DNA of 64,000 nt, from assembly GCA_963818475.1 (NCBI GenBank), contig CAWFSF010000002.1:256001-320000 (forward strand), given 5' to 3'. Made by a program: the position numbers and the translations under genes. Under the pieces are notes generated by a model. That model did not search any database, had not been told where the DNA came from, and was given only the letters and a program-made list of their open reading frames with translations. This stretch comes from Nitrospirota bacterium. Lineage in GTDB: Bacteria; Nitrospirota; UBA9217. Position 1 is the first letter of the stretch. Every line of letters starts with the position of its first letter. Shown here piece by piece: positions 8,809-50,573 of the stretch.

Positions 8809-8875
8809 GTTATTACTTCCTCCTATCTATGGAATGTAGTTAACTGCATCTGCAGTCGTTGAACATCTGGCAACG

Positions 8876-10122: not shown

Positions 10123-10197
10123 AACTAGTTCCTCCTTAAAAGAATTGTAAAGATATATTCCACTGTGGCTGGAGGCCACAACTCTGTCCGCCTCTGC

Positions 10198-10845
10198 TTA
10201 ACCGAGAACGGCCGTCACCTTATTGAAGATGTCGTTGATGCTGCCGACACCCATGACGGTCTTCATGATGTTCTTCTTGGAGTAGTAATCGATGAGCGGC
10301 GCGGTCTGCTGCGTGTATACTTCGAGCCGCTTCTTGATGGTCGCTTCCTTGTCGTCGTCGCGCTGGAACAGCACTCCGCCGCACTTGTCGCAGGTTCCTT
10401 CTTTTTTGGGGGCGGAGAAATAGATATTGTACATCTGCTGGCAGCTTTTGCAGGTCCGGCGGCCGGTGAGCCGCTTCAGGAGGTCGTTCATATCAACGTC
10501 GATATTGAGGGCAATGGTAAGGGGCATGCCCATGCTGGAAAGGATCTTGTCGAGGGCCTCGGCCTGGGCCGTGTTGCGCGGGAAGCCGTCGAGGATGAAT
10601 CCGGCCTTGCAGTCAGGCTGCTTGATGCGCTCTTCAACCAGGCCGAGCACGATCTTGTCGGAAACGAGTCCGCCCGAGTCCATGATCACCTTGGCCTCTT
10701 TGCCGAGCGGCGTGCCGTCGGCAACTGCCTTGCGGAGAATATCGCCCGTTGAGATCTGCGGGATCTTGTACTTGTCGATCAGCATCTTTGCCTGCGTGCC
10801 TTTACCAGCACCAGGAGCACCGAGCAGCACAATCCTTTTAGCCAT
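10198..10845 (-). CDS. adk: Adenylate kinase (Zn-LID type), copy 1
   Basis: GAPGAGKGTQA, ISTGDILR, LDGFPR, CxxC..CxxC LID. Confidence 0.97.
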   Translation of the reverse strand: MAKRIVLLGAPGAGKGTQAKMLIDKYKIPQISTGDILRKAVADGTPLGKEAKVIMDSGGLVSDKIVLGLVEERIKQPDCKAGFILDGFPRNTAQAEALDKILSSMGMPLTIALNIDVDMNDLLKRLTGRRTCKSCQQMYNIYFSAPKKEGTCDKCGGVLFQRDDDKEATIKKRLEVYTQQTAPLIDYYSKKNIMKTVMGVGSINDIFNKVTAVLG

Positions 10846-10995
10846 CGTGGTGAATCCTCCGTTAAGATTATTTTACAGAGATAGAGAGAAGGTGTAAAGG
10901 CGCAATAAATCCTTCGCGACGTTTTAACCGGCCTATAATCGTTGAAATCGAGTTAATATTCAAGTTAAAAATTATAATTTGAATATTAGTTTTGT

Positions 10996-11598
10996 TTATA
11001 AATGAGTCTGCCCATGAAGAAATTCTGCCAGTTTTTCAAGCGCTTTGCCCCTATGGCTAAGCGTATCCTTCTCTTTTCCGGTCATCTCGGCAAAGGTCTT
11101 GTCAAATCCCTGGGGCAGAAACACCGGATCGTAGCCGAATCCGGTATTCCCCTTAGGTTCCAGACCGATACGACCTTTCGCATAGCCAAAAAAGGTCTTC
11201 ACCTTGCCGTCGGGGAAGGCCAGCGCCATGCAGCAGACAAATTGGGCGCCCCGCTTCTCCTCAGGCACATCCTTGAGCTCCTGGAGCAGTTTTTCGTAAT
11301 TTCTTACATCGTTCCCGCTGCCGGTACCGCCCGCATACCGGGCAGAATAGACGCCCGGTGCGCCTTCGAGAGCATCCACCTCAAGGCCCGAATCGTCCGC
11401 CAGAGAAGGCTTGCCCGTGCAGGTGCAGACCTCGACCGCCTTTTTGATCGCATTTCCTTCAAAGGTTTCCTGATCCTCCACGGTTTCCGGACAAGCAGGA
11501 AAATCATCGAGCGAAAGGATCGTGATCGGCAGATCGGCCGTGATCCGCCTGATCTCTTCGACCTTTTTTTTATTTCTCGTGGCGAGAACGATTTCCAT
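10996..11598 (-). CDS. rdgB: Non-canonical purine NTP pyrophosphatase (HAM1/RdgB)
   Basis: [36 protein letters not shown]. Confidence 0.95.
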
Positions 11599-11972
11599 TT
11601 ACTTAGTTTACCCTCCCTTGGCGAAGAAAAGCCTCTGCCTCCGGCGCCGAAACGAGCGGCCACCCTATCATAAAAGACCGGACTTTGCAACCAGAGGATG
11701 CGCATATATCGGGTATGCGGAGAGCCTGAAATTCAGTGCGCGCAGAGGATGCACAAGAGATGTGCCGCATAAAACGGGTTTTTTCGGGTGGTGATTCTCT
11801 TCGTTTAATAGGGTCTCATGCAAATTTTTCATCGACATTGCTAAATGTTCGCTGGACGTTTCCATGCCCATATGCTTTTTTCAAGGTAGGTGCTTCGCGT
11901 TGTTCGCAACAACGGGCTTCAGGACCTCGATGTGAAAAGTGCGCACTGCTGTGAAAATAATATAATAATATA

Positions 11973-12001
11973 TTGACAAGCCTTTTTTTCTGCGGTATAT
12001 T
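11973..12001 (+). promoter_or_regulatory. Sigma70 promoter for rho
   Basis: TTGACA-N17-TATATT, ~320 bp upstream of the rho start. Confidence 0.7.
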
Positions 12002-12321
12002 CTGATCATTCAAGAGATTCCTGATACCTAATCAAACACCCCAGTTATTACCTAATCCAGCATAATAACCAGGAATACATCTTCTACCGTCATGTTCTTT
12101 CTATAACGCAGCAAAGCAGAAAGGTCGTACATCCTTCTTTAGATAACTCACGAGCAGACTGAGTCGTTAGCTTACAAACCTCTCATCCTCATCTCGCACT
12201 TTGATGGAATATGCTCGCCTGCTGACATCACAACTACCGCAATGAAAAAACCTGATCATCCTACCATCTCTAGGAACCATGCCTCATCTGCCCAACAAAC
12301 CACGGGCCAAGGAGCAACCAC

Positions 12322-13571
12322 ATGAATTTAGTAGAACTAAAAGGCAAGGAGCATCGCCGAGCTTACCGCCATGGCGGACGAGCTGAAGATCGAAGGCGTC
12401 AGCGGCTTGCGCAAGCAGGAGCTGATCTTCGCCATCCTGCAGGCCCAGACCGAAAAGAACGGCATGATCTTCGGCGAGGGCGTGCTCGAGATCCTTCCGG
12501 ACGGCTTCGGCTTCCTCCGGGCGCCGGATTACAACTATCTGCCCGGCCCGGACGACATCTACGTATCGCCTTCCCAGATACGCCGGTTCAGCATCCGCAC
12601 CGGCGACACGGTTTCCGGCCAGATCCGGCCGCCCAAGGAAGGCGAACGCTACTTCGCACTGCTCAAGGTTGACGCCATCAACTATGAAGACCCCGAGATA
12701 TCACGGTCCAAGATCCTTTTCGACAACCTGACCCCCTATTATCCTGAAAAAAAGATCAAGCTCGAACATTCACCGACCGACTATACGACCCGCGCCATGG
12801 ACCTCGTTACTCCCATCGGCATGGGCCAGCGCGGCATGATCGTGGCGCCGCCGCGGACCGGCAAGACCATGCTGCTCCAGGCCATTGCCAAGGCCATCCT
12901 GAAGAACCATCCCGACATCAAGCTGATCGTGCTCCTGATCGACGAACGGCCCGAAGAGGTCACGGACTGGGCGCGCCAGGTCAAAGGCCGAGATCATCAG
13001 CTCCACCTTCGACGAACCGCCGCAGCGGCATGTGCAGGTCGCGGACATGGTGAGCGAGCGGGCAAAGCGCCTGGTGGAGCACAAGAAGGACGTGGTGATC
13101 CTGCTCGACAGCATCACCCGCCTTGCCCGGGCGCATAACGCCATCATTCCGGCCTCAGGCAAGGTCCTCTCCGGCGGTCTGGACGCGAATGCGCTCCAGC
13201 GGCCGAAACGGTTCTTCGGCGCCGCCCGCAGCATCGAGAACGGCGGCAGCCTCACGATCCTCGCAACAGCGCTCGTGGACACCGGCAGCCGCATGGACGA
13301 CGTGATCTTCGAAGAATTCAAGGGCACCGGCAACATGGAACTCCACCTCGACCGGAAGCTCGTGGACAAGCGCGTGTTCCCGGCCATCGACATCAACGCC
13401 TCCGGCACCCGCAAAGAAGAGCTGCTCGTGGACAAGGACGACCTGAACCGCATGTGGGTGCTCCGCAAGGTCCTGAACCCCCTGTCCACCGTGGAAAGCA
13501 TGGAGTTCCTGCTGGACAAGCTGAAACAGAACAAAACAAACAGGGATTTCCTGGATTCCATGAACAAGTAG
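12322..13571 (+). CDS. rho: Transcription termination factor Rho (frameshifts near 12348 and 12988)
   Basis: [64 protein letters not shown]. Confidence 0.97.
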
Positions 13572-13673
13572 ATTTTACTTGAAATTCCGTGGTGATTAGT
13601 ATATTATTCCCGCTCTCATCAGCGAGGGCGGTAGTTTTTTGGCTTTCGCAGTCATTCTCAGGAGGATCAGGTC

Positions 13674-13871
13674 ATGAAAGAAGGCATTCATCCCGACTAC
13701 AAGGTGGCAACAGTCAGCTGCGCCTGCGGGGAAAAGTTCACCACCAAGTCGACGAAAGAGACGCTCCGGCTTGACATCTGCTCGGTCTGCCATCCGTTCT
13801 TCACCGGCAAGCAGAAGCTGATCGACACGGAAGGCCGCGTCGACAAGTTCCGGAAAAAATACGCCAAATAG
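13674..13871 (+). CDS. rpmE: 50S ribosomal protein L31 (Zn-binding type)
   Basis: [32 protein letters not shown]. Confidence 0.97.
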
Positions 13872-13936
13872 CATCGCCACCGGCGGCCTTTTGGCCGCCT
13901 TTCTTCTGGAAGAACAAGCCCCGTGAGGTTTCTGCT

Positions 13937-14842
13937 TTGTCCGAAAAAGTGCAAATAGGCGGCCAGGCGGTTCTCGAAGGCGTCATGATGCGCTCTCCCC
14001 ATGCCTATACCGTTGCGGTGCGCAAGGGGGGAAAGCCTGATGCCGAGATCGCCATCTTTCGCCAGACCATCCGGCCCATCGGAGAGCGCTTTCCTTTCCT
14101 GAAGACCAGGATCGTCCGGGGATCGGCTGCGCTCTTTGAGGCCATGTGGCTCGGCATCCGGGCGCTGAACTTTTCGGCGAACGAAGCGCTCGAAAGCGAA
14201 GACGGAAAAAAAGAGGAGATCGGTCCGCTTGCCATGGCCGGCACCATGATCGTGGCGCTCGCCTTTTCTCTCGGACTGTTCCTGGCGCTCCCGCTCCTGC
14301 TCACCAGCCTGCTCGGTGCCCAGTATGCCGCGGTCAACCGGCACAGCATCCTGTTCAACCTCACTGACGGCGCGTTCCGCGTGGTCCTGTTCCTGGGATA
14401 TGTATCCGGCATTTCCTATATGAAGGACATCCGCCGGGTCTTCGAGTATCACGGCGCCGAACACAAGGCCATCGCGACCTTCGAGGCCGGGGTGGAGCTC
14501 ACGGTAGAGAACGCCAGGCCCTACTCCCGCATTCACCCGCGCTGCGGCACCAGCTTTTTGCTGACCGTGGTTGTGATCTCCATTCTCCTGTTCTCGCTCG
14601 TCCCCGGTTCCTGGCCGTTCTGGGCAAAAGCAGCTTCCCGGGTCGTGCTGCTTCCCGTGATCGCCGGCCTGGGATACGAGTTCATAAAATACAGCGCCAA
14701 ACACTGCGGCAACCCGCTGATCCGGAAACTGATGCAGCCGGGCCTCTGGCTGCAGCGCCTCACGACGCGGGAACCGTCGGATGACCAGATAGAAGTGGCC
14801 ATCACGGCGATGCGTGAAGCCCTCGCCATGGAACCCCGCTAA
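13937..14842 (+). CDS. DUF1385 family membrane protein
   Basis: IGGQAVLEGVMMR, FEYHGAEHK, HPRCGTSF, LQRLTTREP; usual rpmE-DUF1385-prfA context. Confidence 0.92.
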   Translation: MSEKVQIGGQAVLEGVMMRSPHAYTVAVRKGGKPDAEIAIFRQTIRPIGERFPFLKTRIVRGSAALFEAMWLGIRALNFSANEALESEDGKKEEIGPLAMAGTMIVALAFSLGLFLALPLLLTSLLGAQYAAVNRHSILFNLTDGAFRVVLFLGYVSGISYMKDIRRVFEYHGAEHKAIATFEAGVELTVENARPYSRIHPRCGTSFLLTVVVISILLFSLVPGSWPFWAKAASRVVLLPVIAGLGYEFIKYSAKHCGNPLIRKLMQPGLWLQRLTTREPSDDQIEVAITAMREALAMEPR

Positions 14843-14872
14843 AGCGGGGTTTTTTGTTGGAACAAAAACACC

Positions 14873-14901
14873 GTAGGGGCGGGTTTTAAACCCGCCCCTA
14901 C
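14873..14901. repeat. GTAG-type REP-like palindrome
   Basis: GTAGGGGCGGGTTTTAAACCCGCCCCTAC, near-perfect palindrome starting with GTAG. Confidence 0.8.
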
Positions 14902-14915
14902 AATTGGTTTTTATT

Positions 14916-15985
14916 ATGCTAAGAAAACTTGAAGCCGTTGCAGAAAAATACGACGAGCTGACCAGGCTCCTGTCCGACCCGGGCGTTGCTGCCAACCACC
15001 AGCAGTACCAGAAGTACTCCCGGGAACGGTCGGATATTGAAGATGTGGTAAACCACTACCGCGCCTACAAGAGACCTGGAAAAACAGATCAGCGAAGCCG
15101 GCGAGATCACCAACGACAAGCAGTCTGACCCCGAACTGCGCACAATGGCCGAAGCAGAGCTCAAGGAGCTTTCGCCTAAAATCGCGCAGATGGAGCAGGA
15201 GCTGCGGCTCATGCTGGTGCCCAAGGACCCGCGCGACGACCGGAACGTCTTTCTCGAGATCCGTGCAGGCGCAGGCGGGCGACGAGGCCGGCCTCTTTGC
15301 TGCGGAGCTTTTCCGCATGTACTCCCGCTATGCTGAAAAGAAGCGATGGAAGCTGACCCTGCTCGATATGAGCACCACCGGCGTGGGCGGAGCCAAGGAA
15401 GTGATCGCCCAGATCCAGGGCAAGGGCGTGTTCAGCAGGCTCAAATACGAAAGCGGCGTGCACCGGGTGCAGCGCGTGCCGGCAACGGAATCCGCCGGCA
15501 GGATCCATACGTCGACGGTGACGGTGGCGGTACTGCCCGAGGTGGACGATGTTGAAGTGAATATCGAACAAAAGGACCTGCGCATCGACACCTACTGCTC
15601 TTCAGGCCCCGGCGGCCAGTGCGTGAACACCACCTACTCTGCGGTCCGCATCACGCACATCCCGACCAACGAGGTCGTCGCGGTCCAGGACGAGCGCTCG
15701 CAGCTCAAGAACCGCGAAAAGGCCATGAAGATCCTGAAGTCCCGTCTGCTCGAAAAAGAACGGGCGCGGCAGGATGCCGAAACCGCCCAGGACCGCAAGT
15801 CCCAGGTCGGGTCCGGCGAACGCAGCGAAAAGATCAGAACGTACAATTTTCCGCAGAGCCGCGTGACCGATCACCGCATCGGGTTGTCGCTTTACCGGCT
15901 CGATGCAGTCATGGACGGCGATCTCGACGAGTTCATCGACGGCCTTACCTCGGCAACGAATGCCGAGCGGCTGAAAAACCTGTAG
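14916..15985 (+). CDS. prfA: Peptide chain release factor 1 (frameshifts near 15070 and 15278)
   Basis: [47 protein letters not shown]. Confidence 0.96.
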
Positions 15986-15990
15986 AACCA

Positions 15991-16068
15991 TTGCGGATTT
16001 CGGATTACGGATTTCGGATTAGCCGCCTATGATCTCACAATCCGCAATCCGAAATCCGCAATCTGCAA
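15991..16068. repeat. Inverted pair of heptamer arrays (TTGCGGA / TCCGCAA)
   Basis: TTGCGGATTTCGGATTACGGATTTCGGATT ... AATCCGCAATCCGAAATCCGCAATCTGCAA. Confidence 0.9.
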
Positions 16069-16075
16069 TTAAACC

Positions 16076-16937
16076 GTGACCATTACTGAAACCATAAACA
16101 GGGCGGCCACGCGGCTGTCGGCGCACAAGGTAGACAACGCGCGCAGGGATGCAGAGGTTGCTTCTCTGCCATGTCCTGGTCCGCGACCGTGCCTGGCTCC
16201 TGGCGCACATACAGGACGAAATCGACGACCAGTCGGTCCGGCAGTATGAACGGATTATTGACCGTCGCGCCGTACGCGAGCCACTCCAGTACATCACCGG
16301 CAGACAGGAATTCTGGGGACTGCCCTTTAAGGTCACTCCTGACGTGCTGATCCCGCGGCCCGAGACCGAGTTCGTCGTCGAAGCAGCGCTCAAAGCCGTC
16401 AGCATGGCCCTGACGCCGGTCATCATCGACCTCTGCACCGGTTCCGGCTGCATTGCTGTCAGCCTGGCAACGGAGCTCCTGAACGCGCAGGTGTTCGCAA
16501 CCGACCGATCGGAGCAGGCTCTTGCAATTGCCCGAGAGAACGCCCGTATGAACCAGGCAGCGGAACGCATCAGATTCCTTGCAGGAGACCTGTTCGCGCC
16601 GGTGGGGGAATTGGACCTTCACGAAAAGGTCGATGTGATCGCCGCGAACCCGCCCTATATACCGGCCGGCGACCTTGCCGGACTTCAGCCCGAGGTCAGG
16701 GATTTCGAACCGGAGATGGCGCTTATAGCCGGGCCCGAGGGTACCGAGACCGGTACAGCGATCATACTGCAGGCGCCGGCATTCCTGAAAAAGGGCGGCA
16801 CGCTCATCATGGAAATGGGCATGGGCCAGACAGCCGCGCTCAGCGCCATCGTTAAAAAGACCGGCAAATACAGGACGCTGGAGATCGTCAAGGACCTGGC
16901 AGGCATAGAGAGGGTCCTGGTAGCAAGAAAGGCATAA
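16076..16937 (+). CDS. prmC: Release factor glutamine methyltransferase (frameshift near 16158)
   Basis: EPLQYITG, VLIPRPETE, DLCTGSGCIA, ANPPYI; GTG start at 16076. Confidence 0.95.
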
Positions 16938-16976
16938 CAGTAAGCAGGATTCTGACCACTGGCTACTGCATTCATC

Positions 16977-18225
<1,249 letters not shown>

Positions 18226-37487: not shown

Positions 37488-40400
37488 TTACCATCCGGCG
37501 AACCACTTCACCGCTTCCGCAGCGGAGAGCTGATCGAACTTCATCCTGAGCTTGACGAAGAATCCACGGCTCGTGAACTCGGCACGGGAGAAGTCCCGGT
37601 CATTGAATCCCTCGAAATTATAGCCGATGCTGATCCAGAGGTTCTTTGCAGCGGTATAACCCACTGAGGCCTGGCTTCCATAGCTTTTCTGATCGAGGCC
37701 CCAGGAATGCAGCATGCTGCCGCGGAGCCCAACGTCCCAGGACGTGGTGATATCGTATCGCCCTTCGATCCCGATCAGGTCCGTGTATCCGCGGTAGTCG
37801 TCCTGGTCGATCGTCTCCTGCACATACTTGGACCCGTACTGGAATGAGAGCTGGGTGCGGCTGTCCGCCCGATGGTTCAAGACGAGATTGTTCACCAGCC
37901 GCTGGTTCTCGAAGGATACCGCAGCGCTCTGCTGGTCCGTGCGAATGTAGTCGAAGCGGTCCAGAAGGATGATCCGGGTCTCGAATGGCCGGTAAGCGAA
38001 ACCGATCCGGAAGTCTCCGTTGAAATTCTCCGTTCCCGTTGCCGCGACGCTTCGATAGGTTTGCAGACCCGCGGCAAGCCCCAGGCCGCGCCGCACCTCG
38101 CCTACCGCGCCGGTCGTGAAGCTCACCCGCTCCTCGCTTTCAGAAACGCGGCGCTCTGCGCGGCCGGTCCAGGACCACTTCTCCTGGCGGTATCCTGCGC
38201 CGAGCGAAATGGCGGTGAAGTCCTCGGTGCTGCCCGACGCAGGCGGAACATTCGTATTCACCGAGTACGTTCCGCTGTTGCGGATCGTCGCGGTGCGGTC
38301 CACGCCGCCGTCGAGCGACCAGGCCTTCGTGAGCTGCCAGGTCTGCTTCAGCCCCAGGGTGGAGAAAAGCCGCAGGCCGTTCCCGGTCTCCAGCTGCTCC
38401 ATGGTGGAGCTCATCTGGCCGCCGGTCCAGGGCGACGCCCGCAAACCGATCCGGGTGGTCGCCGTGTCAGCCTGCTTGCCTTGGGTAAGCTCCTGATCGG
38501 CAAAGAACGTCGCGGTCGGGTTCAGCCGGTACTCCATGCCCATGGTCGTCCGCGTCGGAAAATCGATGTTGTCGCTGCTGCCGATGGACTGGTCGTGCTG
38601 GACCCTGCCGAAGAAGCGCTCCGTGAACTGATAACGCATGCTGGTATAGATCTGGTCGGACTGGTGCGTTTCACCTCCAGCCAGCGCATCCTCGGCCTGA
38701 CGCAGGCCGGCTGTCACGTCGTATTTCGTTCCCGTGTACCGTCCCCAGAGCTCGGCAAGGTTGCGCGTTGCGTTCGTGGAGAGGTTCTCCTGACGGAAGG
38801 CCTCGCCGCCCACGGACCAGGGCTGGTCAAGCCGGTAGAGCAGGCCTGCGCCCGTCTTCCGGGTGCCGGTTTCGCTGCCGTTCTGCTGGCCCAGGCCGAA
38901 ACCAGTCTCCTGCTCCCGCACGTAGGCCTTGCCGTCCATCCGGTCGCTCTGGTGCTGGACCTCTGCCAGGTATGCGGAACCCTCGGTCGTGACGCCGGCC
39001 TGCTCCGTCTTCGTGGTCGCCGCCTCTGCCCGGACCTTCGTTGCAGGACCGAGCTTCAGTGTGGCATCGACGCCTTCGAGGTTCCCTTCGCCGCCGACCC
39101 TGCCCTCATGCACGTGCGAGACCCCCACTTCCAGCGTCTGATCCAGAAGCTTCAGGGCGCCGCGGCCGCCGTAGGTGTACGACGTATCTGACGAATCATT
39201 GGACTCGTAGGCTGCCACGATGAAGATGGGGTTGAAGCTGCCATCCCTGCTGAATACGGGCGACTTGAAAAAGACCGTCCCCGCCTCGTAATCAATGGTG
39301 TAATCAAGAAAGCGCGTCAGCTGCAGCCGCGAGACAATGACCTCGCTCTTGAACCGGTCCCGGGTCTCGATGGTTATGCTCTCGGAATTGGCCGCGATGT
39401 TCCTGCGCGAGAGCCGGTAGAGGCCCGAGGTGCCGTCTCCCTGGATCTCATCCCTGACATAAGCCTGGTCCGTGTCCGCCAGGAACAGACTGTACTCGAA
39501 GTTCTCGCCCTTCATCTCGGATTTAAAACCCGTGAAGGTGCGGCTGTACCGAGACAGGTCGGTCACGGTCAGACCGGTGTCATAGTCGCCGAACAGGGCG
39601 TAGAACTGGTCGCGTTCCAGCTTGACATAGATGTTCTTCGCGCTCGCCGCATCGTATTGCTGCTCGCCGGCGTCACCGTAGAGGAGGTAATACTTGTTCG
39701 GATCGATGGTCTGGTAGAGGTCCCGTTTCTTGCTGCCGCTCTTTTTGCTGTCATAGGCAGCCGTGATCAGCCACTCTCCCTTGATCATGCCTTTGGCATA
39801 GAACGCCAGCCTGCCCTCTTCAGAGAAGCCGTCGCCGCCCGGCAGCGTCTCCATGTTGCCCGTTACCGTGTCGTAGCCCACCGTGCCCTCGGCAAGGCCC
39901 ACCAGGACCCAGTCGCGGGTCTCGGGTCTGAGCCAGACGCGGATCTCCTGCACCCCCTGTGCGAGCGGGATCCGGACAACCGCCTCCCCGGTGCGCGTGG
40001 TGGCCGCAAGTTCGATGAGCGCCACGCCGTCCTCACTCACCTCATACCTGAACCGTTCGCGCGGTCTGAGCGGTGAGCGGCGCCTGCTGCAGCTCCGTTG
40101 CGCGCTGCTGCGGCAGATAGGGCGGGTCAATGCTGAATTCGCCGAGCGCTCCCTGGCGCGCCGGATGGCCGTCCCGGTCAAGGAGCCGGACAGCGATGAT
40201 CGCCGGGTTCCTGCCGTCGGCAACAAGCCGCGATCGCCCGGGCTCCAGAACAGCCTGCAAGGGAGGGCCTGAATAGTGCATCGAACGCTCCATGCGGCTG
40301 ACCTCGGCGCCTGACGGGTCAAGGACCACCAGCTCGAACCGGTTATCACCGTCAACGAGGTGAATGCCGCGCCAGATGCTGACCCCGACGGTATGGTCGT

Positions 40401-43350
40401 TCTTCTTCACCGTTCCGTCGAAATAGAGCGCATCCACCGGAACGCCGTTCTGGAGGAGCCGCACCGTCATGCTCGGGTCATGCTTGATCGCGATCTTCGT
40501 GCTCGCGATGGCGGGATGGTCGCTGTCAGGCGGCCAGAGCCAGGCAGTACCGGGCTCTGCTGTGTCGAGCCAGGCAGCAGTGTAGGCCGGCATGCTCTTG
40601 TTGTCCGAAACAGCGGCTGTTCCCTTTTCCGGAGCCCAGACCTCACCGGGCCGGAGCCCGATCGTTGCCACGGCCTTCATGCCGCTGGCCGGGCCGCTCT
40701 TGAGGGCGGGGACTACGAGGACCTGCAGAGGCGGCCGCACCTTGAGTTCCACGCGGCGGTTCCGGGTCCGGCCCTGCTCCGTTGCGTTGCTTGCCACCGG
40801 CTCGTCGGGCCCTTTGCCCTCATAGGTGACTTGGTCAGGTGCAAGTCCCAGCGCGTCGGCGAGGTACGACCCGACCGCTGCCGCGCGCTCGAACGACAGG
40901 GCGTGGTTGTCGGGATACCGCGCTTGCAGTCTGCGGCTGATCGGCCGCGAGTCCGTATGGCCGGTGACCGTAATGTGCTGCACGCGCACCTTTCCGAGCC
41001 GGACAAGGAGACGGTCCAGTTCCTTTTTATCATTCCCGGTCAGGACCGCACTGCCGCTCGAGAACTTCGGATGGAGCACGATGTCCGGCACGGGCTGGAG
41101 CTCCTCGCGGGTGCCAATAACGAGCGCGGTGTTCACCGCCGGCGTCCGGTTGTTCCTGGCCTCGGGCGAATCCGACGTAAGCACGGCTCCGGTAGGCAGC
41201 TGCCGGCCTTCGGGACCTTCGAGCGGCACCGCCGCGTCGAACTTGACCATCCCTTCCCAGTTCGCAGGGACCTCAGCGAAACGGAAGGTCAGCGCTCCCG
41301 CGGTTTCCTGAGGCTCGCCGATGGGGATAACGACCGGGGAGGCTCCGGTCGCCGCTCCGTCAACGATTCTGCCGGAAAAGATCACACTGCCCTTCCGGTA
41401 AGATGCCCCCTCAGGGAGCATGATCGAAAGCTTGAGGTTGCGCGCCGGCACCATGCCCACATGCATCGGCATCGTGTACTCAATGAGGTCCTTCCCAGCA
41501 CCCGCGCCCGGTGCGCCGTCTGCGGACCGCTTCGGAGCCGTGGCGATCTCGATGCTTACCTCGCCGGCAGCCTTCGGTTTGAGGCCGAGGTGGAAGTCCG
41601 CACGCCAGAGCGTCCCGCCCTGCAGATCCGCGAACCGGGAGAAGGGGTTCCCGGCAGAGCGGGTGTTCTCTTCACAGGGCAGGATCTCGTATTTCTCGGG
41701 CACGGTCGCAGTGTCAAGCTGAACCACGTGCGTGCCCGGCTTCACCGCAGCGAAGTGGAACATGCCCTGCTCGTCCGTCACCACGTAGGTGCCGTCCTCC
41801 AGGAAGATCCGGACCTGAGCCAGGCCGGCGCCGATGCTCCGGTCAGGATCGCCGCACCCGTCTATGGCCACACGGCCCGCGATGGTCGCCGTGGAGCGGA
41901 ACAGGTCCTCGATGACCAGCACCGTGGCAGTGGCGGCGTTCGATGCAGAGCCGATCACGGTCGTGGCTACAGCCGTGTTAACGGCCTTGCCGGGATTGGC
42001 GCCTGCTCCGACCGACGCCACATAGGCAACCAGTGCCCTGCCTGACGGTCCCAGGTCGCCGACGGAGAAGGTAAGCCCCCGGCCGTCAGGGGTAACCGTG
42101 GGATCGGCCAGCCGCACGCCGTTCAGCCGGGCCGAGCCTTTCTCGTAGCGGAATCCCGCGGGGCAGCCGGTCCGTGACACCGACACCCGGCGCAAACGCC
42201 GTCGTATCGGCGTTCTCCACCGTAAGAGTATAGGGAACGAAATCTCCTACAGCTGCGGTCGCCTTTGCCGCGGTCTTCTGGAGCCAGAGCCCGGTTCCCA
42301 CGGGGTCCACAGGAATGTCGATATGGAGCGCCGGACCGGGGTTCACCACGAATTCCTCGCCTCTTGATCCGGGATCCACCATGGCAAAGGGGCTGCCCGG
42401 CAGCGCCTGGATCGTCGAGGTGGGCACTGCCGAAGGGGCCCGGTACGCAGCCGGCGGGACAACATCGAGGCGGTAGCGTCCGGGCGCGATATAGGGGAAC
42501 CGGAAACCGCCGGCGGCAAAAGTGTAGCTCGCGCCGCCGCTGTCCATGGCTGTGCCGCCGGAAGTGACCGAGGCCGGGAATGCTGACACGCCGTCATCGC
42601 CATACACCGTGGCAGGCAGGCCGGTCGTTGTGTCAACGAGGGTGACCGTGGCCCCGTCCACGGGCAGGCCGGTCGTGCTGTTGAAGACCAAACCATAGGG
42701 ATCGACCAGAGCAAGGTCGACGCGGCTGTCGGTGCTGTCGGCCACGTCCACGTAGGAGCCGTTGATCCGGGAATTGACGGCAACGCTCAGGATCCCGTTC
42801 CCGCTCACGGCGGGCCCGGGACCGGTCTGGATGTAGCCGGTGAATACGCCCGTGTTCGGGCCGGTCTCGCGAAGACGCAGAACCTCTATGTCATTGGTGG
42901 CGCTGACTCCGACCGTCACCAGGACGGTCTCGATGGCCGCAGGATCGAGGTCCTGGTCAAGGTCGGTCAGGCGGATGAAGAGCGGTTCGCCGGTATGGTA
43001 TGTGCTTCCTGGCACCAGCGGGACAGGCGCGCTGAGGTTGATCGGCGCGGTGCTCGGGAACTGTACCGGATCGGGCAGAACGGCAAAAGGACCTGCGCTC
43101 GTGCGGTAGTCCGTCAGTGAAATGACCGTCGGACGGCTGACGGCGACGCCGGGGCATACTGCAGGAACTCAAGGACCGACGGCGTGCGCGTTGCCACGGT
43201 GGTGATCCGCACCAGGTTGGAACTGGAGGCTACGCCGGCGCCGTCCACGGTATAGGCCGCCGTGGCCGTATTATCGATAAGGGTCCCCGGCGGCACTGCC
43301 CAAAGAGATGAGGACGAAAGAATAAGAATGAAAAGGACCAGGATTGCCAT
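37488..43350 (-). CDS. Very large outer-membrane protein (~1950 aa): N-terminal strand, Ig-like/DUF11 domains, OmpA-like peptidoglycan-binding domain, C-terminal beta-barrel (frameshifts near 43130, 42160, 40045; start uncertain)
   Basis: Joined from ORFs 43114-43500, 42086-43015, 40042-42195, 37488-40355. Signal peptide then VPPGTLIDNTA; DUF11 (LQK..YTLTVEN..TDRLP..VNTA); OmpA (GHTDS..N..LS..RA..V..GKGP..PVASN..GR..NRRVE); long amphipathic beta-strand C-terminus. Confidence 0.85.
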
Positions 43351-43537
43351 CAGTCCCGATGATGCTGCCCGGGAAAAACAAGCAGCCGCAGGAGCGCATT
43401 CCGCGCCCCTGCGGCTGATGATCGAATTCTTTTCCAAGCAGCAGACGCAGCCCGTCCGTGCTGCCCATGCTCCGGGCAACCGGTCTGACGACTGCATCAC
43501 TGTTGCGGGAAAAGTGGTTCATACTGCGAACTGCTCC

Positions 43538-44656
43538 TTACTGGACCACGACCTGGAACTTGATCACTGCCGATGACGAGAGTGGGATCGTAAGCCCGCT
43601 CACCGTCACGGTATTGGCAGTGAAGTTCGCCCCGTCTCCGTCTGCGTTCGTGTTGGTCTTGCATCCGCCGTTCACCACGATGCCCTCCCCTGCGACGCAG
43701 GTGATCGTAACGCCGTCATTGAACTGCGTGTTAAAGGCCAATCTGCCTGCAGCGATCTCAGCAGCAAGGCTGTCGGTGATGGACACATTATCGGCTTGAG
43801 AACCGGTCGCGCCGTTCGTCACCGTAATGGTGTAGGTGATGACCGCTCCGGGGATCATCTTGGGATTTGACGAGCTGAACGGATCGGAATAGACCACTGC
43901 GGTTTTGGTGATCGTCAGGGCTGCTGCGGTCACCCGGTACGCGCTCCGGTCGGAACCCTCTCCGTCATATTGCGTGTCCGTCCCCACGCTGGCGTTGGCT
44001 GCATCGGCAAAGACCACGTCCACGCCGAGCAGGTTGTTCGCGGCACCGGAGGAGTCCGCCGTCAGCGCGCCAAGACCCGCTCCGCCCGCGTTATGCGTTG
44101 TAGCAATAAGAGCGTAGGCGGCTATATCATTGGTGGCCTGGCCTGCGGGAATGTCTGCCACGATGTAGACCGTCGCGGTTGCATCGGAGACCAGTTCGTC
44201 AATGATAGTCGCAGTGTCCGCACCCGCCTGGTATCCCGCTGTTCCGTTGGTCTCAACAAAGACCTGAACGTTCGCGGCGTCGAAGGAATCGGCCGCATCT
44301 CCGTTGAAGGGATCAGTGGCAGCTGCCGCCGCGAGACTATAGTCCTGCGTTGCGTTGCCATTGTTCCTCACCGTAAAGGTCTGCACCTGCGAGGTTGAAC
44401 TGGGTGCCGTGCTCACATAACTGCCGTCCGTGGTCGTCACGGTGAGGTTGACCTTTGTGTCAACCGCAAAGGTCGCCGTGGGGCCCGTGCTGAGCGGAGT
44501 CTGTGCCACGCCGCTGACCTCGTAGTTGACCGTGGCGCTGTTGGTGATCAGTGTTCCTGAAGCCGTGCCCGCGGCCTCTGCCGACAGCGGGGCGACGATG
44601 GCGATTGCCGCGATCAGCAGCAGCGCCATAAATCTGTAGATCCTGTTCGTATTCAT
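43538..44656 (-). CDS. Exported DUF11-family protein, 372 aa, candidate major pilin
   Basis: Strong RBS AAGGAGG, 165-bp upstream spacer, signal peptide ending AEA; mature N-terminus AGTASGTLITNSATVNY; C-terminal incomplete DUF11 ending VIKFQVVVQ. Confidence 0.85.
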   Translation of the reverse strand: MNTNRIYRFMALLLIAAIAIVAPLSAEAAGTASGTLITNSATVNYEVSGVAQTPLSTGPTATFAVDTKVNLTVTTTDGSYVSTAPSSTSQVQTFTVRNNGNATQDYSLAAAAATDPFNGDAADSFDAANVQVFVETNGTAGYQAGADTATIIDELVSDATATVYIVADIPAGQATNDIAAYALIATTHNAGGAGLGALTADSSGAANNLLGVDVVFADAANASVGTDTQYDGEGSDRSAYRVTAAALTITKTAVVYSDPFSSSNPKMIPGAVITYTITVTNGATGSQADNVSITDSLAAEIAAGRLAFNTQFNDGVTITCVAGEGIVVNGGCKTNTNADGDGANFTANTVTVSGLTIPLSSSAVIKFQVVVQ

Positions 44657-44821
44657 GTAATTCCTCCTTCGTAGTACTTCACCATTTCGTTCAGGTAGTT
44701 TATTCTGCTGCACGTGTTCTTCGCTTCTTATCAGTTTAATATCTGCAGTTGCACCACACTCCTTTCAACAATCAGTTTTATCAAGTCTTGTGAACTTGCT
44801 TGCATAGATATAAAAACCTTC

Positions 44822-45317
44822 TCATTTCACCATGGCCCGGAACGAAACGCTGCCTTTGCCGCCCGGAGCCAGCGGTTTGCCCAGGGTCCAGCGTATATGC
44901 GTATAATCCCCGGCCGTGGCCCGCTTCGACACTCCCTTGGCATCGGTCTTCGTCAGCTTATCCGGGGCTGCATAGCGCTTTCCCCTGGTCCACGGAGAAT
45001 TCGATCTTCATGCCCTGGCCCTCGGCGCTGTTCTCGACGTAGACAACGTGTTCGGACACGGGATTCGTTATCACGACATTCTCTACAGGCTTTTTGTCGA
45101 TGTTCGCATACTGCGTGGTGAATATGACCACATCGCCCGGTATGACCTTGGCTGCTGCGGCATCCACCCGCGTCACCTCTTTTTCACCTTTGGTGTTCGT
45201 TGCGGTGACCTCGACCTCGGAAATTGATATCAGTTCAAGGCTCCCTTTTTTCTGCGCTGTTGCAATCGTCGGCAGCAGCAGAACCAGCAGCACCATGCTC
45301 ACAACCGTTTTTGTCAT
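44822..45317 (-). CDS. Small exported DUF11-like single-domain protein (frameshift near 44980)
   Basis: Signal peptide; VIPGDVVIFTTQYAN..VVITNPV..FSVDQGK then, frame-corrected, RYAAPDKL..YTHIRWTL..APGGKGSVSFRAMVK*. Confidence 0.82.
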
Positions 45318-45341
45318 TATCGTATGCCCTCCTTGTAGTGC

Positions 45342-46380
45342 TCAATTTATTTTCACGTCAAACGTAATGGTCTGGACCGGGGAAGACGCGCTGTTCAGGT
45401 CCCCGAGCCTCACCGTCACCGTCCCGGCGGTCGTTACGTTCACGTCTCCTGCGTCGGCATCCGCGGCATCGGTCAACAGGCTGTTGTTCAGCCTGAGCGT
45501 TCCGGCCACAGAGGTCGTATTTGTCGGAACCGGGTCCGAGATCACCACACCGGTTGCCGTGCCCGACCCGGACACGGTCACGGTGATGGTATACCGGATG
45601 GTTGCACCGGTGACGGGCTGACCGCCTGCGGAGGTCACCACTGCGCTTTTCAAGAAGCGAGACCATTGCGCTGGCAACACGATAAGCTGACGCTGCCGAG
45701 TGCGCGCTGTCCCTGATCCCGTCGGCAACACCTGCTCCATCGGCAAACACGGTGTCCACCGCAGCCTGGGTGTTCGGCCCAACAGTCTCCGGGACCACGC
45801 CACCCAGTACGCCGACGACGCCGCCGGACCGGGCTGTTGCGACGAGGCTCAGCGCGGAGACATCGCCGCTCACCTGGGCTCCCGGCATGTCGGCAACGAT
45901 ATAGACCGTGCGCACGGCGTCAGCTGCCAGCTCGTCAAGATAGGTCCCCGTGTCCTCCGCAGCCTGATACCCTGCGGTCACGCCGCTCTCAGCGAATACC
46001 TGCGGATTCGCTGCATCGAAGTTGTCGGTCCCTCCGAAGGGGTCAGCAGCAGGGACCGCTGCAAGGGCGAAATCCTGCACGCTGTTGCCGGTGTTCGTCA
46101 CCGTGAAGGTCAGCACCTGAGAAGCTGCACCGGGAGTGACGCTCACAGGGACGCCGTTCGTTGTCGCTGCGATGAGATTGATCTTTTGGTCGACCACCAG
46201 GCTGGTCAAGGCAGTGATCGGGGGCTGGGGGCTTCCGCCATAGTCATACGTGGCGATCGCCAGGCTCGATATGGTCACCCCCGCGGGCGTGCCGGCGGCG
46301 CGGGCGGAGCGCTCCATGATCGTCACCAATACAGTCAGGGCGATGAATGCCGCCAGAACATATTGTGCTGTTTTCTTCAT
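45342..46380 (-). CDS. Exported DUF11-family protein, paralog of 43538-44656, candidate minor pilin (frameshift near 45655)
   Basis: Signal peptide then AGTPAGVTISSLAIATY; shared middle domain (TFTVTNTGN..DELAADA..TVYIVAD..DTVFAD); C-terminus LKS..IRYTITV..ISDPVP..TITFDVKIN. Confidence 0.85.
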
Positions 46381-46403
46381 AGCGAGCGCCCTTGTGCTCC
46401 TCA

Positions 46404-49400
46404 TCACTTCACCCTCACCCGGAACTGCAGCGCAAAGGAGGGAGTGTTCGTGCCGCTCGCACCGTTGAACGTTCCGCTCAGGGATATTTTGATATTCGTA
46501 ACACTGCCGTCGAAACCGTTCACGTCGGGAACCGGCAGGTAGTCGTAGGTTGCACCGTTGTTGCTCGAGAACGAGATGCTGTCAAAAATATTCGACAGGC
46601 CTCCAAAGGCGTAACTGAGCCCGCTCGCTATGGCGCCGTCCGAGAATGCAATGGGGCCGGAACCGGCGACACCGAAGTCACCGGCAAAGAACTCGGTTAA
46701 GGATGGAAGGGGATCGGTCACTACCACAGTCCCTGCAGCGCCTCCCCCGGTATTCGTGGCCAGGATCGTGTACTGCATGCTCGATCCGGGGATGGCCTTG
46801 GGACTGGTGGTGCCGTTCACCGGGTCGGAGTAGGTATTCACGGACTTGACCATCACGATATTGGGGTGGCTTACTGAGGTGAACAGCACACTGGAACTAT
46901 TGTTGGCCATATTCGGATCGGTCTGGTCGTTGGCCGTAATGCTTGCGCTATTGGTAATGGTCACTCCGCCCGCGGTCACCATGGCGGTTATGTTCAGCGC
47001 TTTTGTCGCATCCTTGGCCACGCTGCCCGCCGTCCAAACGCCGGTCCCGCTGTTGTAGGCGCCGCCGCCGTTGTCCGACACATAGGTGACACCCGCGGGC
47101 AGCAGATCGGAAACCATTATGCCGGTCGCATTGTTCGGACCGCTGTTCCCGATGGTGAGCGTATAGACGACGGTGGTTCCCTGGTTTGGCGTTGAGTTGC
47201 TCACGGTCTTGGTGATGTAGAGGTCGGTGCTCTGCACGGTGATCACCGCGCTGGCGGTGTTGTTGGAACTGTTGGTGTCCCCCTGATCCGCCGACGTCCT
47301 CACGGCCGTGTTCGTGATGGTGCTCCCTGCCGTGCCGGTATTGACCGTGGCGTTGATGGTCAGCGTTGCCGTTGCTCCGCTGTTCAGGGCGGCGATGCTC
47401 CAGATGCCGGTCACGCTGGTATAGGTGCCTGCGGTCGCAACGGACGACGTCAAGGTCAACTCCGCGGGCAAGAGATCGGTCACCACGACCGTTGTTGCGT
47501 TGTTCGGGCCGTTGTTCCTGAGCCCGACGGTGTACACGACCGCGCCCCCTTCGTTGGGCGTTGCATTGTCCACCGTCTTGGTCACTGCCAGGTCCGTCGC
47601 GCCAACCACAAGGGACGCGCTCGCTGAATCGTCGGCTGGATTGATGTCGCTCTGGGTCACGGCGGTGATCGACGCCATGTTGTTGATCGTCTGACCCATG
47701 GTACCTGCGTTGACAGTGGCCGCCAGCAGCATGGTGGCCGTCGCTCCCGAGTTGAGCGGGCCAACGGTCCAGGCGCCCGAACCGCTGTTGTAACCGCCTT
47801 GCGTCACCGACGATCCTCCGGCAGCGTAGGTGAGTCCCGCGGGAAGCGCGTCGCTCACGGTTACGTTCGTGGCATTGGTCAGGGACGGATTGCTGATCAC
47901 GATTGTGTAGGTGACGGTCGCGCCGATTGCCGGCGATGTATTGTTCACGGACTTCGTGACCGCAAGGTCCGTGATCCCCACGCCGACCACCAGCGAATTG
48001 ATCGACGAGTTGTTCGCGTTCACCGGATCCGCCTGGGCTGCTGACACGATCTCGGCCATATTGTGAACGGTGGTGCCGTTCGCTGTTGCATTCTTCACGG
48101 TCACATTGATGGTGAGGGCCGCGCTCGCACCGCTCGCGATCGGCCCGGCTATGGTCCAGGTGAGCGTCGGCGCGGAATAGGTCACGGACCCGGTGGTGGC
48201 CGATGCCGAATTGTACGTAAGGTTCCCGGTGTCGATCACGTCCCGCACCGCGATGTTCGTTGCAGGGTGCGGACCGTTGTTGGTGAGCACCACGGAATAG
48301 GAATAGGCTTCGTTCTTGTTCGGCGAGGGGTTGCTCGAAGTCTTGGCCACGGATAGGTCTGCACGCTGCACCGTGATCGACGCGTTCGCCGTGTTGTTCG
48401 CCGTGTTGGGGTCGCCGACGCTCGCGCCGTTGATGGAGGCCATATTCGTGATCGTCATGCCGTTCGTGCCCGCGTTGACCGTGGCAGTGATGGTCCTGAC
48501 CGCGGACCCGCCTGCCATGATGGTGCCTGCGGACCAGAGACCGCTCCCGCTCACGTAGGTGCCGGTGCCTGCGGACGAGACATAGGTCAAGCCGGCGGCG
48601 AGCAGGTCCGAGACCGTGACCGAACCTGCGCTGTAGAGCCCGTTGTTTGTGACGGTAATCGTATAGGTTATGGAATTGGCCTCGTTCGGTGCCGCATTAT
48701 CGACTGTCTTGGACAGGGACAGATCAACGCCGCTGATGAAGACCGAAACGCTGGCACTATTGTTCGCGGTCATGGGATCTGCCTGATCGGATGTTGCCAC
48801 CACCGCCGTGTTGGTCGCTGTTGTACCCATGGCACCATCCACATCCGCCGTGATGCTGAGCGTTGTGGTCGCGCCGCTCGCGAGGTTGCCGACGGTCCAC
48901 GTGCCGCTGTTGTAGGACCCTTGGGTGGCGCTGGACGTCGAATACGTCAGTCCCGAGGAAAGGACGTCGGTCACCGTCACGCCTGTAGCGAGGGAGGAGC
49001 CCAGGTTTTGGAGCGTGACCGTGAAGACCACGCTCCCGCCGGTCGGAGGAGAAGTGTTGTTCACGGTCTTGAAAAGGGCGAGATCCGCGCCGCCGATCGT
49101 GAGCGAATTGCTTGCCGTATTATTGCCGCTCACCGGATCATAGATGGCCGAAGCGGTGATGCTGGCGGAATTGGCAAAGGTCGCTCCCTGGGTGCCCGCA
49201 TTCACGGTCACGGTGATGGTCAGCGATGCGTTCGCGTTGTTCGCGAGCGAGGGCACTTCCCACACACCCGTGGTGCGGTTATAGGTCCCGGCCCCGCTGT
49301 CCGAGACCCAGGTCACGCCAGCCGGAAGCATATCGGTCACCTGGATGCCGGTCGAGTTGTTCGGTCCGTTGTTCGTGACCGTAAGCGTGTAGGTCACGGT

Positions 49401-50573
49401 CTCCCCTTCTGCGGGCGTGGTTTTGTCCGCCGTCTTGGCCATGCTCAGGTCTGCGGCCTTCTGCACGGTCAGTGTGTCGGTCCTAAGTTGATTGGTGTGG
49501 TAGGAGGCGTCGATTGAGTCGAGATAGGTGACGGTCACTGTCTCGATGGCTGTCACCTGGAGCGAGCCGTTCCCGGTAACCGGCGCGCCCGTTGCTGTTG
49601 TGAGAGACCCGGTGAAGATGCCCGTATTAACGTCGGTTTCGGTCAGCGTCACGGTCTCGCTGTCGCCGGTCGGGCTAGTTACCGAGACCGTAAGAGTCTG
49701 GACCGCGGCGTGATTGGTGTTCACATCCTGGTCCGTCATGTTTATGTAAAGGGTTTGGCCGGAATTGAGCTGGGTCACGTCGCCGGTTCCGGCAAGGTTC
49801 GAGACGAACGTGACCGTACCGGTGGCGGGATAGGTGCCCAACGGCGTGACCGCATCGGTGGCATTGGCAGGCATGCACTGGGAGAGATTTGTTGAGCACG
49901 TATTGGATATATCAACGAGGTCCGCCGAGAGAGACTGGGCGCTGTTCGAGCTCCCAATGAAGAATCTGATGGGAGAGGTATCGGTCAGGCCTGTTTTGGC
50001 TTTAAAGGTGGCGTAAGGGATGCGGAAATCGAGGAAATAGTCCCGCCCACCATTCGTCGACGAGTCTGCGGTAACGGTCCGGAAATTGACGTTCAACTGC
50101 CACTGCTCGGACCAGACGGTGACTTCAGTCTTGTCGGACGGGTCACCCAGCGTCCCCTGAGAGGTGTTCTGACCGATCTCGATCGTATCGGGATTATCAA
50201 TGCCGTTCAGCATCACCATCCACTCATAGTCGCTGAAGTCATTGTCCGTATCGATCAGGAACCCCCAGCCGAACGGCTGAAGGCCGGTACCCTGATTATT
50301 CAACGCGTCCCCATCCACACGAATACGATAGAACATATAGGTGCCGTCATTAAACAGGTAAGCTGAGGGATAGGTCGACGTATTGGTGACGATGTCCCGG
50401 GGGTCGTTGGCTCCGCCTTGGGAGTCACTGATGATGTCCGTAAGGCCGGACATGGTTTTCGTCAAAACGATCCACTCGGAGTCCAGCGGCCAGGCAAAGA
50501 GATATGCCGGATAAAGGCAGATGGCCAGAAGGGTGATGATGAGTATTTTTTTTAAGTTCCTCATGAAATTCAT
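46404..50573 (-). CDS. Large exported adhesin-like protein with seven complete and one incomplete DUF11 repeats
   Basis: Signal peptide, unique N-terminal domain, repeats DLxxxK..YT.TV.N.GP..V.D.LP..N.A..DP..NN.AS; last domain ends FALQFRVRVK. Confidence 0.93.
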   Translation of the reverse strand: MNFMRNLKKILIITLLAICLYPAYLFAWPLDSEWIVLTKTMSGLTDIISDSQGGANDPRDIVTNTSTYPSAYLFNDGTYMFYRIRVDGDALNNQGTGLQPFGWGFLIDTDNDFSDYEWMVMLNGIDNPDTIEIGQNTSQGTLGDPSDKTEVTVWSEQWQLNVNFRTVTADSSTNGGRDYFLDFRIPYATFKAKTGLTDTSPIRFFIGSSNSAQSLSADLVDISNTCSTNLSQCMPANATDAVTPLGTYPATGTVTFVSNLAGTGDVTQLNSGQTLYINMTDQDVNTNHAAVQTLTVSVTSPTGDSETVTLTETDVNTGIFTGSLTTATGAPVTGNGSLQVTAIETVTVTYLDSIDASYHTNQLRTDTLTVQKAADLSMAKTADKTTPAEGETVTYTLTVTNNGPNNSTGIQVTDMLPAGVTWVSDSGAGTYNRTTGVWEVPSLANNANASLTITVTVNAGTQGATFANSASITASAIYDPVSGNNTASNSLTIGGADLALFKTVNNTSPPTGGSVVFTVTLQNLGSSLATGVTVTDVLSSGLTYSTSSATQGSYNSGTWTVGNLASGATTTLSITADVDGAMGTTATNTAVVATSDQADPMTANNSASVSVFISGVDLSLSKTVDNAAPNEANSITYTITVTNNGLYSAGSVTVSDLLAAGLTYVSSAGTGTYVSGSGLWSAGTIMAGGSAVRTITATVNAGTNGMTITNMASINGASVGDPNTANNTANASITVQRADLSVAKTSSNPSPNKNEAYSYSVVLTNNGPHPATNIAVRDVIDTGNLTYNSASATTGSVTYSAPTLTWTIAGPIASGASAALTINVTVKNATANGTTVHNMAEIVSAAQADPVNANNSSINSLVVGVGITDLAVTKSVNNTSPAIGATVTYTIVISNPSLTNATNVTVSDALPAGLTYAAGGSSVTQGGYNSGSGAWTVGPLNSGATATMLLAATVNAGTMGQTINNMASITAVTQSDINPADDSASASLVVGATDLAVTKTVDNATPNEGGAVVYTVGLRNNGPNNATTVVVTDLLPAELTLTSSVATAGTYTSVTGIWSIAALNSGATATLTINATVNTGTAGSTITNTAVRTSADQGDTNSSNNTASAVITVQSTDLYITKTVSNSTPNQGTTVVYTLTIGNSGPNNATGIMVSDLLPAGVTYVSDNGGGAYNSGTGVWTAGSVAKDATKALNITAMVTAGGVTITNSASITANDQTDPNMANNSSSVLFTSVSHPNIVMVKSVNTYSDPVNGTTSPKAIPGSSMQYTILATNTGGGAAGTVVVTDPLPSLTEFFAGDFGVAGSGPIAFSDGAIASGLSYAFGGLSNIFDSISFSSNNGATYDYLPVPDVNGFDGSVTNIKISLSGTFNGASGTNTPSFALQFRVRVK

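Follow-up and report, generated by a model that had tools for sequence, protein, structure and literature searches.

A triad-lacking, acceptor-only DUF11-like protein as a possible end piece of a donor-strand fibre in Nitrospirota

Gene S lies in the 64,000-nucleotide stretch of Nitrospirota DNA that was analysed (the window) and encodes a small exported protein made of one incomplete DUF11-like domain. It stands in an operon of four genes, A-S-B-O, and the reading preferred here is that a donor-strand fibre made by this operon has S as its distal cap or initiator, an acceptor-only subunit that carries no payload and is joined non-covalently. A probability of about 0.45 is given to this reading. 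All the support for it, and for the readings that compete with it, is in silico.

Gene S is read in two frames, and its features in the window are the following.

44822-45317, minus strand: gene S, coding for an exported protein of 164 aa with a single DUF11/CLIPPER-like domain, read from 45317 to 44958 and then, in a second frame, to the stop codon at 44822-44824
45252-45317, minus strand: signal peptide of S, residues 1-22, ending A-T-A before QKK (predicted by eye)
45328-45333, minus strand: ribosome-binding site of S, AGGAGG, 10 nt 5' of the ATG
44979-44985, minus strand: frame break in S, where a G4/A3 run is one base longer than in the orthologous DNA of loci L001 and L002

The ORF at 44958-45317 (minus strand) encodes 119 aa, and its translation contains the motifs LELISISE and VVITNPV; past this ORF, the reading resumes in the second frame at about 44990. 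Judged by eye, the N-terminus runs from a basic through a hydrophobic segment to an A-x-A motif, and the signal peptide lacks a lipobox Cys. A scan for promoters and terminators around S returned nothing above chance.

A database search with the 119-aa piece gave 51 candidates, of which 24 reached E<=0.001. The window's own product is among these 24; the remaining 23 are intact, are 158-166 aa long and share 39-87% identity with the piece. Both pieces of the window gene align with these 23 orthologs, whose C-terminal 50 residues correspond to the window's second frame, and each piece shows 81-91% identity to orthologs, with no further damage. The extra base relative to L001 falls within the run CCAGGGGAAAGCGC (on the coding strand, G4 at 44982-44985 and A3 at 44979-44981), and a contig of about 92% identity, from run X3, has one base fewer at 44982. 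As intact orthologs match both frames and a single extra base separates the window from L001, the corrected gene of about 165 aa can be taken as real, which confirms the exported, once-frameshifted protein of this length proposed in the first-pass annotation. The break itself has most likely arisen in assembly and not in the organism, since the orthologs are intact and two further genes of the window are also split, each into a pair of overlapping ORFs.

12371-13138 and 13032-13571, plus strand: rho, split, with positions 2-67 of the ATP-synt_ab profile in one ORF and 96-211 in the next
16977-17756 and 17716-18225, plus strand: EPSP-synthase-family gene, split, with positions 2-252 and 252-417 of the Pfam profile in its two parts

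These splits suggest that scattered assembly indels are the simplest reading of the frame breaks in the window. Among public sequencing runs, none containing this stretch was found, the best share of sampled words being 0.14. Programmed frameshifting in S was also considered and ruled out: it would need a +1 shift, the ortholog frames are uninterrupted, and housekeeping genes of the window are broken too.

By profile search, S is a member of a large family of ~165-aa proteins. A profile of the 23 intact orthologs, run against 1.84 billion representatives, gave 9139 matches at E<=0.001 (515 at E<=1e-30); in the best 150 of these 9139, about 90 are full-length single-domain proteins of 157-180 aa and the others are giants with many DUF11 repeats, each repeat being matched separately. 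The databases assign no function to the family, and a search of the protein atlas gave only unnamed or 'conserved repeat domain' clusters. Several unusual members were seen: P0071 has two S-like domains in tandem, the first hairpin of P0074 is duplicated, and P0069 joins a response-regulator receiver domain in frame to an S-like protein that follows it, so that the signal peptide lies in mid-chain, which is probably a gene-call fusion.

The domain assignment comes from intact orthologs. The DUF11 model PF01345 matches the window's 119-aa piece at E=0.0098 and 16.6 bits, under the cut-off of 24.6; two of three intact orthologs pass that cut-off (P0010 at 31.5 and P0022 at 26.4; P0003 reaches 20.8), and all three pass the threshold of TIGR01451. 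The Pfam match spans only profile positions 8-57/64 of 114, and the domain is incomplete: it ends at ...FRA.VK, level with the last residue of the giant protein encoded nearby, and the strands after the F strand are missing. The motif GT.I.N.A, which marks a donor strand in the neighbouring proteins, is absent after the signal peptide of S, and no donor strand is present in its mature N-terminus. The proposal that S is a single incomplete DUF11-like domain devoid of a donor strand is thus borne out.

In DUF11/CLIPPER domains, an intramolecular isopeptide bond can link a first-strand Lys to a late-strand Asn with the assistance of an Asp (Lys715, Asn806 and Asp748 in 9IFR), and some DUF11 domains lack the bond, according to the available part of PMC12617251. 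S lacks this triad. At the Asp column, 90 of the 107 family members carry Asn, 14 retain Asp and three have some other residue; of the 34 copies of S in operon loci, 32 carry Asn. Lys is found in at most 35% of members at every candidate first-strand column (n=107), the equivalent column being uncertain as a hairpin insert of 18-20 residues lies there; the window's S has no Lys in its own first strand. The Asn strand of the triad is also absent from S. The first-pass annotation had noted a first strand (LELISISE) without Lys and an Asn in place of the conserved Asp (VVITNPV), and had raised the question of whether orthologs consistently lack both residues. Both motifs are present as described, and across the family Lys is not conserved and Asp is mostly replaced.

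An AlphaFold2 monomer model of P0008, the S protein of L001 (81% identical to that of the window), has a mean pLDDT of 88 and a pTM of 0.75. Its mature part exceeds a pLDDT of 90 and is predicted to be a single, all-beta domain of about ten strands. A fold search of the PDB with this model gave no match at E<=0.001; the best hits were generic Ig-like domains (TTHA1873, 9IFR and RrgB), with the CLIPPER structure 9IFR matched at a probability of 1.0 and a TM of 0.52 on the target. A sequence search of the PDB with the S profile returned only a weak match to FlgE (E=0.0027); it covers residues 217-316 of 9yee chain Ce, an inserted region of the hook protein with the pattern FS.D....FAAP..LT..D.DG, and may be due to chance. 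The most conserved block of S, SA.G ... EFSVDGG ... DYTHIRW, spans residues 94-144 (P0008 numbering; about 44885-45040 of the window, minus strand) and is partly common to the terminal module of the giant protein. Between the window and Gammaproteobacteria, S is ~40% identical, about as much as the barrel of O, while B and the N-terminal part of A are at about 30-35%.

The proteins encoded around S supply the context in which an acceptor-only domain would work.

46404-50573, minus strand: giant protein, 1389 aa, with 8 DUF11 repeats, no donor motif and a truncated acceptor module at its end
46407-46931, minus strand: C-terminal acceptor module of the giant, Lys and Asp kept, the closest relative of S
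45342-46407, minus strand: subunit A, two overlapping ORFs (frame break near 45654); donor region at the N-terminus, truncated DUF11 domain with Lys and Asp at the C-terminus
46240-46296, minus strand: donor-strand region of A, AGTPAGVTISSLAIATYDY, with the usual Asn missing
43538-44713, minus strand: subunit B, intact; donor region at the N-terminus, truncated DUF11 domain with Lys (LTITK) and Asp (SITD) at the C-terminus
44522-44572, minus strand: donor strand of B, AGTASGTLITNSATVNY, the peptide already named in the first-pass annotation
37488-43500, minus strand: protein O, ~2000 aa, in at least four ORFs here, with a donor motif, DUF11, an OmpA-like domain and a C-terminal beta-barrel of ~30 strands
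43246-43293, minus strand: donor motif of O, PPGTLIDNTATAAYTV, immediately after the signal peptide

The order A (~340-400 aa), S, B (~360-430 aa), O (~1960-2140 aa) recurs across loci. In a set of 42 loci from Nitrospirota, Thermodesulfobacteriota ('Deltaproteobacteria') and Gammaproteobacteria, many of the last from Woeseiaceae, A was recovered 35 times, B 34 times and O 32 times; contig ends truncate four of the loci, another is a variant, and in six S stands by itself. S is present in every operon-type locus. O is one open frame in intact loci (for example, L001:6012-12092), and a giant multi-DUF11 gene lies just upstream of A in seven of the 42 loci, as well as in the window and in the diverged second operon that contig C1 carries. 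This copy (about 8480-17830, minus strand) comprises the end of a giant, A, S, B and O, with many frame changes; its S paralog is 51% identical and is broken after ...GKL.

A model of the last 900 residues of O shows ~30 long antiparallel strands, with a pLDDT of 70-87 there and 65 overall. Its PDB neighbours (Deinococcus SlpA, SprA, LptD, MtrB and the FimD usher) were found at E values of 1e-7 to 1e-5 with low TM scores, and all are large outer-membrane barrels. A and B are acidic (pI 4.1-4.3), with 0.3-2.7% Lys and 23-33% Thr+Ala; in the A and B of the window and in their orthologs alike, the conserved first-strand Lys is one of the few lysines of these proteins. S had been described as basic and Lys-rich, unlike these structural subunits. 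This holds for the close clade in Nitrospirota and Thermodesulfobacteriota (pI 9.2-9.9, Lys 9-15%) and fails for the family as a whole (n=107), of which 71 members lie below pI 6. The charge of S is therefore not a family property, given a family median pI of 5.1 and acidic gammaproteobacterial members.

Six of the 42 loci (L013, L036, L039, L040, L041 and L042) hold orphan S-like genes with no A, B or O nearby. A search of these genomes for O was negative in all six (four of four positive controls were recovered), as was a search for A, run without a control, in the five tested. Two of the six genomes are complete chromosomes, and their two S-like proteins are the most divergent. Several orphans lie directly upstream of a DinG-like helicase gene and tsaB, the genes that follow O in full operons (L007 and L012).

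The mature N-termini of A, B and O share a pattern, GT.AGT.I.N.A.V.[YF] ... SN.V..V, which follows directly on the signal peptide. Nearly all of these proteins have its Asn (A, 28 of 31; B, 25 of 26; O, 27 of 28). In the C-terminal acceptor domains, Asp is kept throughout (33 of 33 A and 34 of 34 B proteins) and Lys in most cases (28 of 33 A and 32 of 34 B proteins). Inside the repeats of the giant, a Lys strand is followed ~90 residues on by the motif T[IVLFA].N.A.[IVLR]; it occurs eight times, seven of them at a spacing of ~120 aa, whereas 1000 shuffles averaged 0.17 occurrences and never had more than 2. The last domain of the giant keeps Lys and Asp in five of five copies, and the protein stops just before the expected Asn strand. 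The C-termini of S, A, B and the giant all stop at this same point of the domain.

By eye, the two post-signal strands of A, B and O (GT.I.N.A.V.Y ... SN.V..V) resemble the strands that are missing from the C-terminal DUF11 domains of A, B and the giant, and they may be those missing strands supplied in trans, a claim based solely on motif and position. Profile tests left homology to the last DUF11 strands unconfirmed, which weighs against the end-piece reading: none of eight donor 50-mers was matched in a Pfam search, and aligning the donors to a complete DUF11 repeat with hhalign gave a probability of 2.4%. Because O has a donor and no terminal acceptor, and S and the giant have an acceptor and no donor, the strands are inferred to act between molecules and not to fold back on the chain that bears them. 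Each donor would then complete the domain of the preceding subunit, and where an acceptor with Lys and Asp meets a donor with Asn, an isopeptide bond could seal the joint. As a barrel protein with an OmpA-like domain, O would be the base of the fibre and probably its pore. Having the acceptor half only, S could sit solely on a free donor end, by a joint that would be non-covalent, as Lys is absent and Asn replaces Asp. The order of the chain would be S <= A/B ... <= O.

Donors (A, B and O) and acceptors (A, B and S) number three each in the minimal operon. This balance, together with the closeness of S to the terminal attachment module of the giant, favours the cap. In hhalign, the S profile matches that module at a probability of 87.8% (E=3.3e-6, 101 columns reaching to its last residue), compared with 35% for the acceptor of A (43 columns) and 54% for that of B (54 columns). 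S thus looks, from its profile, like the attachment module of the giant without the payload. The donor of A provides a further, weak hint. Its Asn, otherwise almost invariant, is lost only in three Nitrospirota-type loci, those of the window (46240-46296, minus strand), L001 (3292-3441) and L002 (8605-8754), where the strand reads ISSLAIATY, ISSPAIATF and ISGQATATY; such a donor would pair, by elimination, with S, the only acceptor that lacks both Lys and Asp. The hint is weak as the loss is a single lineage event and the A protein of the C1 paralog keeps its Asn.

The binding of a donor by S was modelled with P0008 residues 24-165 (an alignment of 23 rows) and the first 50 mature residues of A (26 rows). 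Scores of 0.83, 0.83 and 0.82 were obtained for the complex, with 0.00 for the best of three controls; when the tool was calibrated, 58 of 80 solved complexes and two of 110 mismatched pairs attained this mark. The models have 106-109 contacts and a partner pLDDT of 80-81, and at least 95% of the contacts are common to the runs. The VVITN strand of S (residues 79-87) is paired with donor residues 13-18, and S residues 26-34 with donor residues 27-38; one face of the S strand at 65-71 is covered. These models support the binding of a donor by S, and the peptide-binding groove on which the first-pass annotation had staked its proposal is predicted in them, with the N-terminal strands of A docked into it. 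The models are equally compatible with A, B or O as partner and with cap or chaperone as role, and they may simply reproduce a learned, intact Ig/DUF11 fold, which counts against the end-piece reading. So does the interface, which holds only four of the 21 most conserved positions of S and excludes the block at 94-144, and so does the confident monomer model, as S may possess a stable fold that needs no partner.

The same observations were weighed against three other readings. S could be an inverse chaperone: in the periplasm it would hold the Asn-bearing donors of A, B and O non-covalently and release them to acceptors with Lys and Asp. An irreversible isopeptide bond at the acceptor would make the hand-over one-way, S being a natural 'dead catcher' with a role opposite to that of PapD, and a covalent ratchet would drive the ordered assembly of the fibre across the outer membrane without ATP. 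The absence of Lys and the Asn found in 90 of 107 members would make such a complex reversible, and the predicted donor binding, the occurrence of S in every operon-type locus and its conservation, at about the level of the O barrel, are all consistent with it. An engineered precedent exists in SpyDock, a non-reactive SpyCatcher that binds SpyTag reversibly, as reported in the consulted portion of PMC7844731. Known donor-strand chaperones, however, donate a strand to an acceptor groove, and the acceptor-only S cannot shield the open domains of A and B. The conserved Asn needs no selection for reversibility either, as Asn is a simple neutral substitute for a buried Asp that has lost its partners. 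Moreover, S is most similar to a structural part, the terminal module of the giant adhesin, and orphan copies occur where A or O is missing. The inverse chaperone is considered unlikely. 'Chaperone or cap' had been the original suggestion, with the inverse chaperone as the role inferred; its acceptor-only, triad-lacking premise stands, and of its two halves the logic of the operon favours the cap.

The orphans bear on the end-piece reading as well, and weigh against it: with S-like genes in six of 42 loci in genomes where O or A was not detected, some members of the family work, or persist, without this fibre. They also speak for S as a stand-alone Ig-like envelope protein with another job (the binding of a ligand, peptidoglycan, a polysaccharide or O), its likeness to an acceptor being incidental. 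The orphans beside the DinG-like helicase gene and tsaB, the confident monomer and a most conserved block that lies outside the modelled interface all fit this account. Against it stand the position of S between A and B, strictly kept in about 35 loci of three phyla, a complex model with clean controls, and a C-terminus that stops exactly where the acceptors of A, B and the giant stop; it too is considered unlikely. A further reading is that S and much of the operon are true pseudogenes in this organism and that S is not made. The cluster has at least five frame breaks (one in A, one in S and at least three in O), the C1 copy is broken many times, its S paralog included, and rpoB and rpoC are intact. 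Yet rho and the EPSP-synthase-family gene are split too, which points to scattered indels in a MAG of seven contigs (91% complete); the break in S falls within a homopolymer run, and its pieces, at 81-91% identity to orthologs, are otherwise undamaged. Loss of the gene is considered very unlikely, and S as the end piece of a donor-strand fibre is retained as the preferred reading.

If the end-piece model holds, the product of A-S-B-O is a surface fibre of a kind not yet described, made by double-membraned bacteria; the operon occurs in Nitrospirota, in Thermodesulfobacteriota and in many marine Gammaproteobacteria. The subunits would be joined through a split DUF11/CLIPPER domain, by strand donation and possibly a covalent lock, a barrel protein of ~2000 aa would serve as base and pore in one chain, and S would be the member built not to lock. 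Whether S is cap, starter or chaperone bears on how such a fibre could be ordered without ATP, and the system might yield natural tag/catcher and tag/dock pairs for protein engineering. A literature search, run without supplementary files, found no description of the operon. The Litorilinea grappling hooks, which are DUF11 fibres, and the haloarchaeal tafi are different systems from A-S-B-O.

The closest likeness of S is to the DUF11/CLIPPER domain (PF01345, TIGR01451 and 9IFR), an Ig-like sandwich of CnaA type whose HMM thresholds its orthologs pass as given above. The bond of that domain is intramolecular (Lys715/Asp748/Asn806) in the part of PMC12617251 that could be consulted, whereas S has neither the Lys nor the Asp; S also stops before the Asn strand and adds an extra hairpin and an FSVDGG insert. 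In its proposed working, S is more like a tip pilin.

The pilin domains of FimH and PapG are acceptor-only, with an incomplete Ig fold and no N-terminal extension; they take up the strand of the next subunit and so occupy the distal end. S would work alike, although its sequence is unrelated and it has no adhesin payload. The same tip-subunit logic of chaperone-usher pili, acceptor-only and at the distal end, is given in the portion of the review PMC11821415 that was available. The fibre proposed here differs from such pili in that its other joints may be covalent and in that O, of ~2000 aa and with a donor of its own, is not an usher of FimD type.

The chaperones PapD and FimC keep subunits from polymerising too early by donating a strand to the unstable groove of an acceptor. 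S could only accept one; it is a single domain where PapD has two Ig domains, and searches of Pfam and NCBIfam gave no PapD-like chaperone match. ElrE, another donor-strand chaperone, holds subunits before polymerisation by strand complementation in the accessible text of 10.64898/2026.10.17.759780, and differs from S in the same way.

Donor-strand complementation and inter-subunit isopeptide bonds are combined in the thread filament of Sulfolobus acidocaldarius, as described in the available sections of PMC9715654. That filament is archaeal, has no outer-membrane component and is built from another protein family, and a triad-less cap is not described for it in those sections. For the lost reactivity of S, the nearest parallel is SpyDock, in which, from the excerpt of PMC7844731 at hand, a split isopeptide domain is no longer reactive and binds its tag reversibly. 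SpyDock was engineered from the CnaB2 domain of a Gram-positive adhesin; S would be its natural counterpart, derived from a CnaA-like domain.
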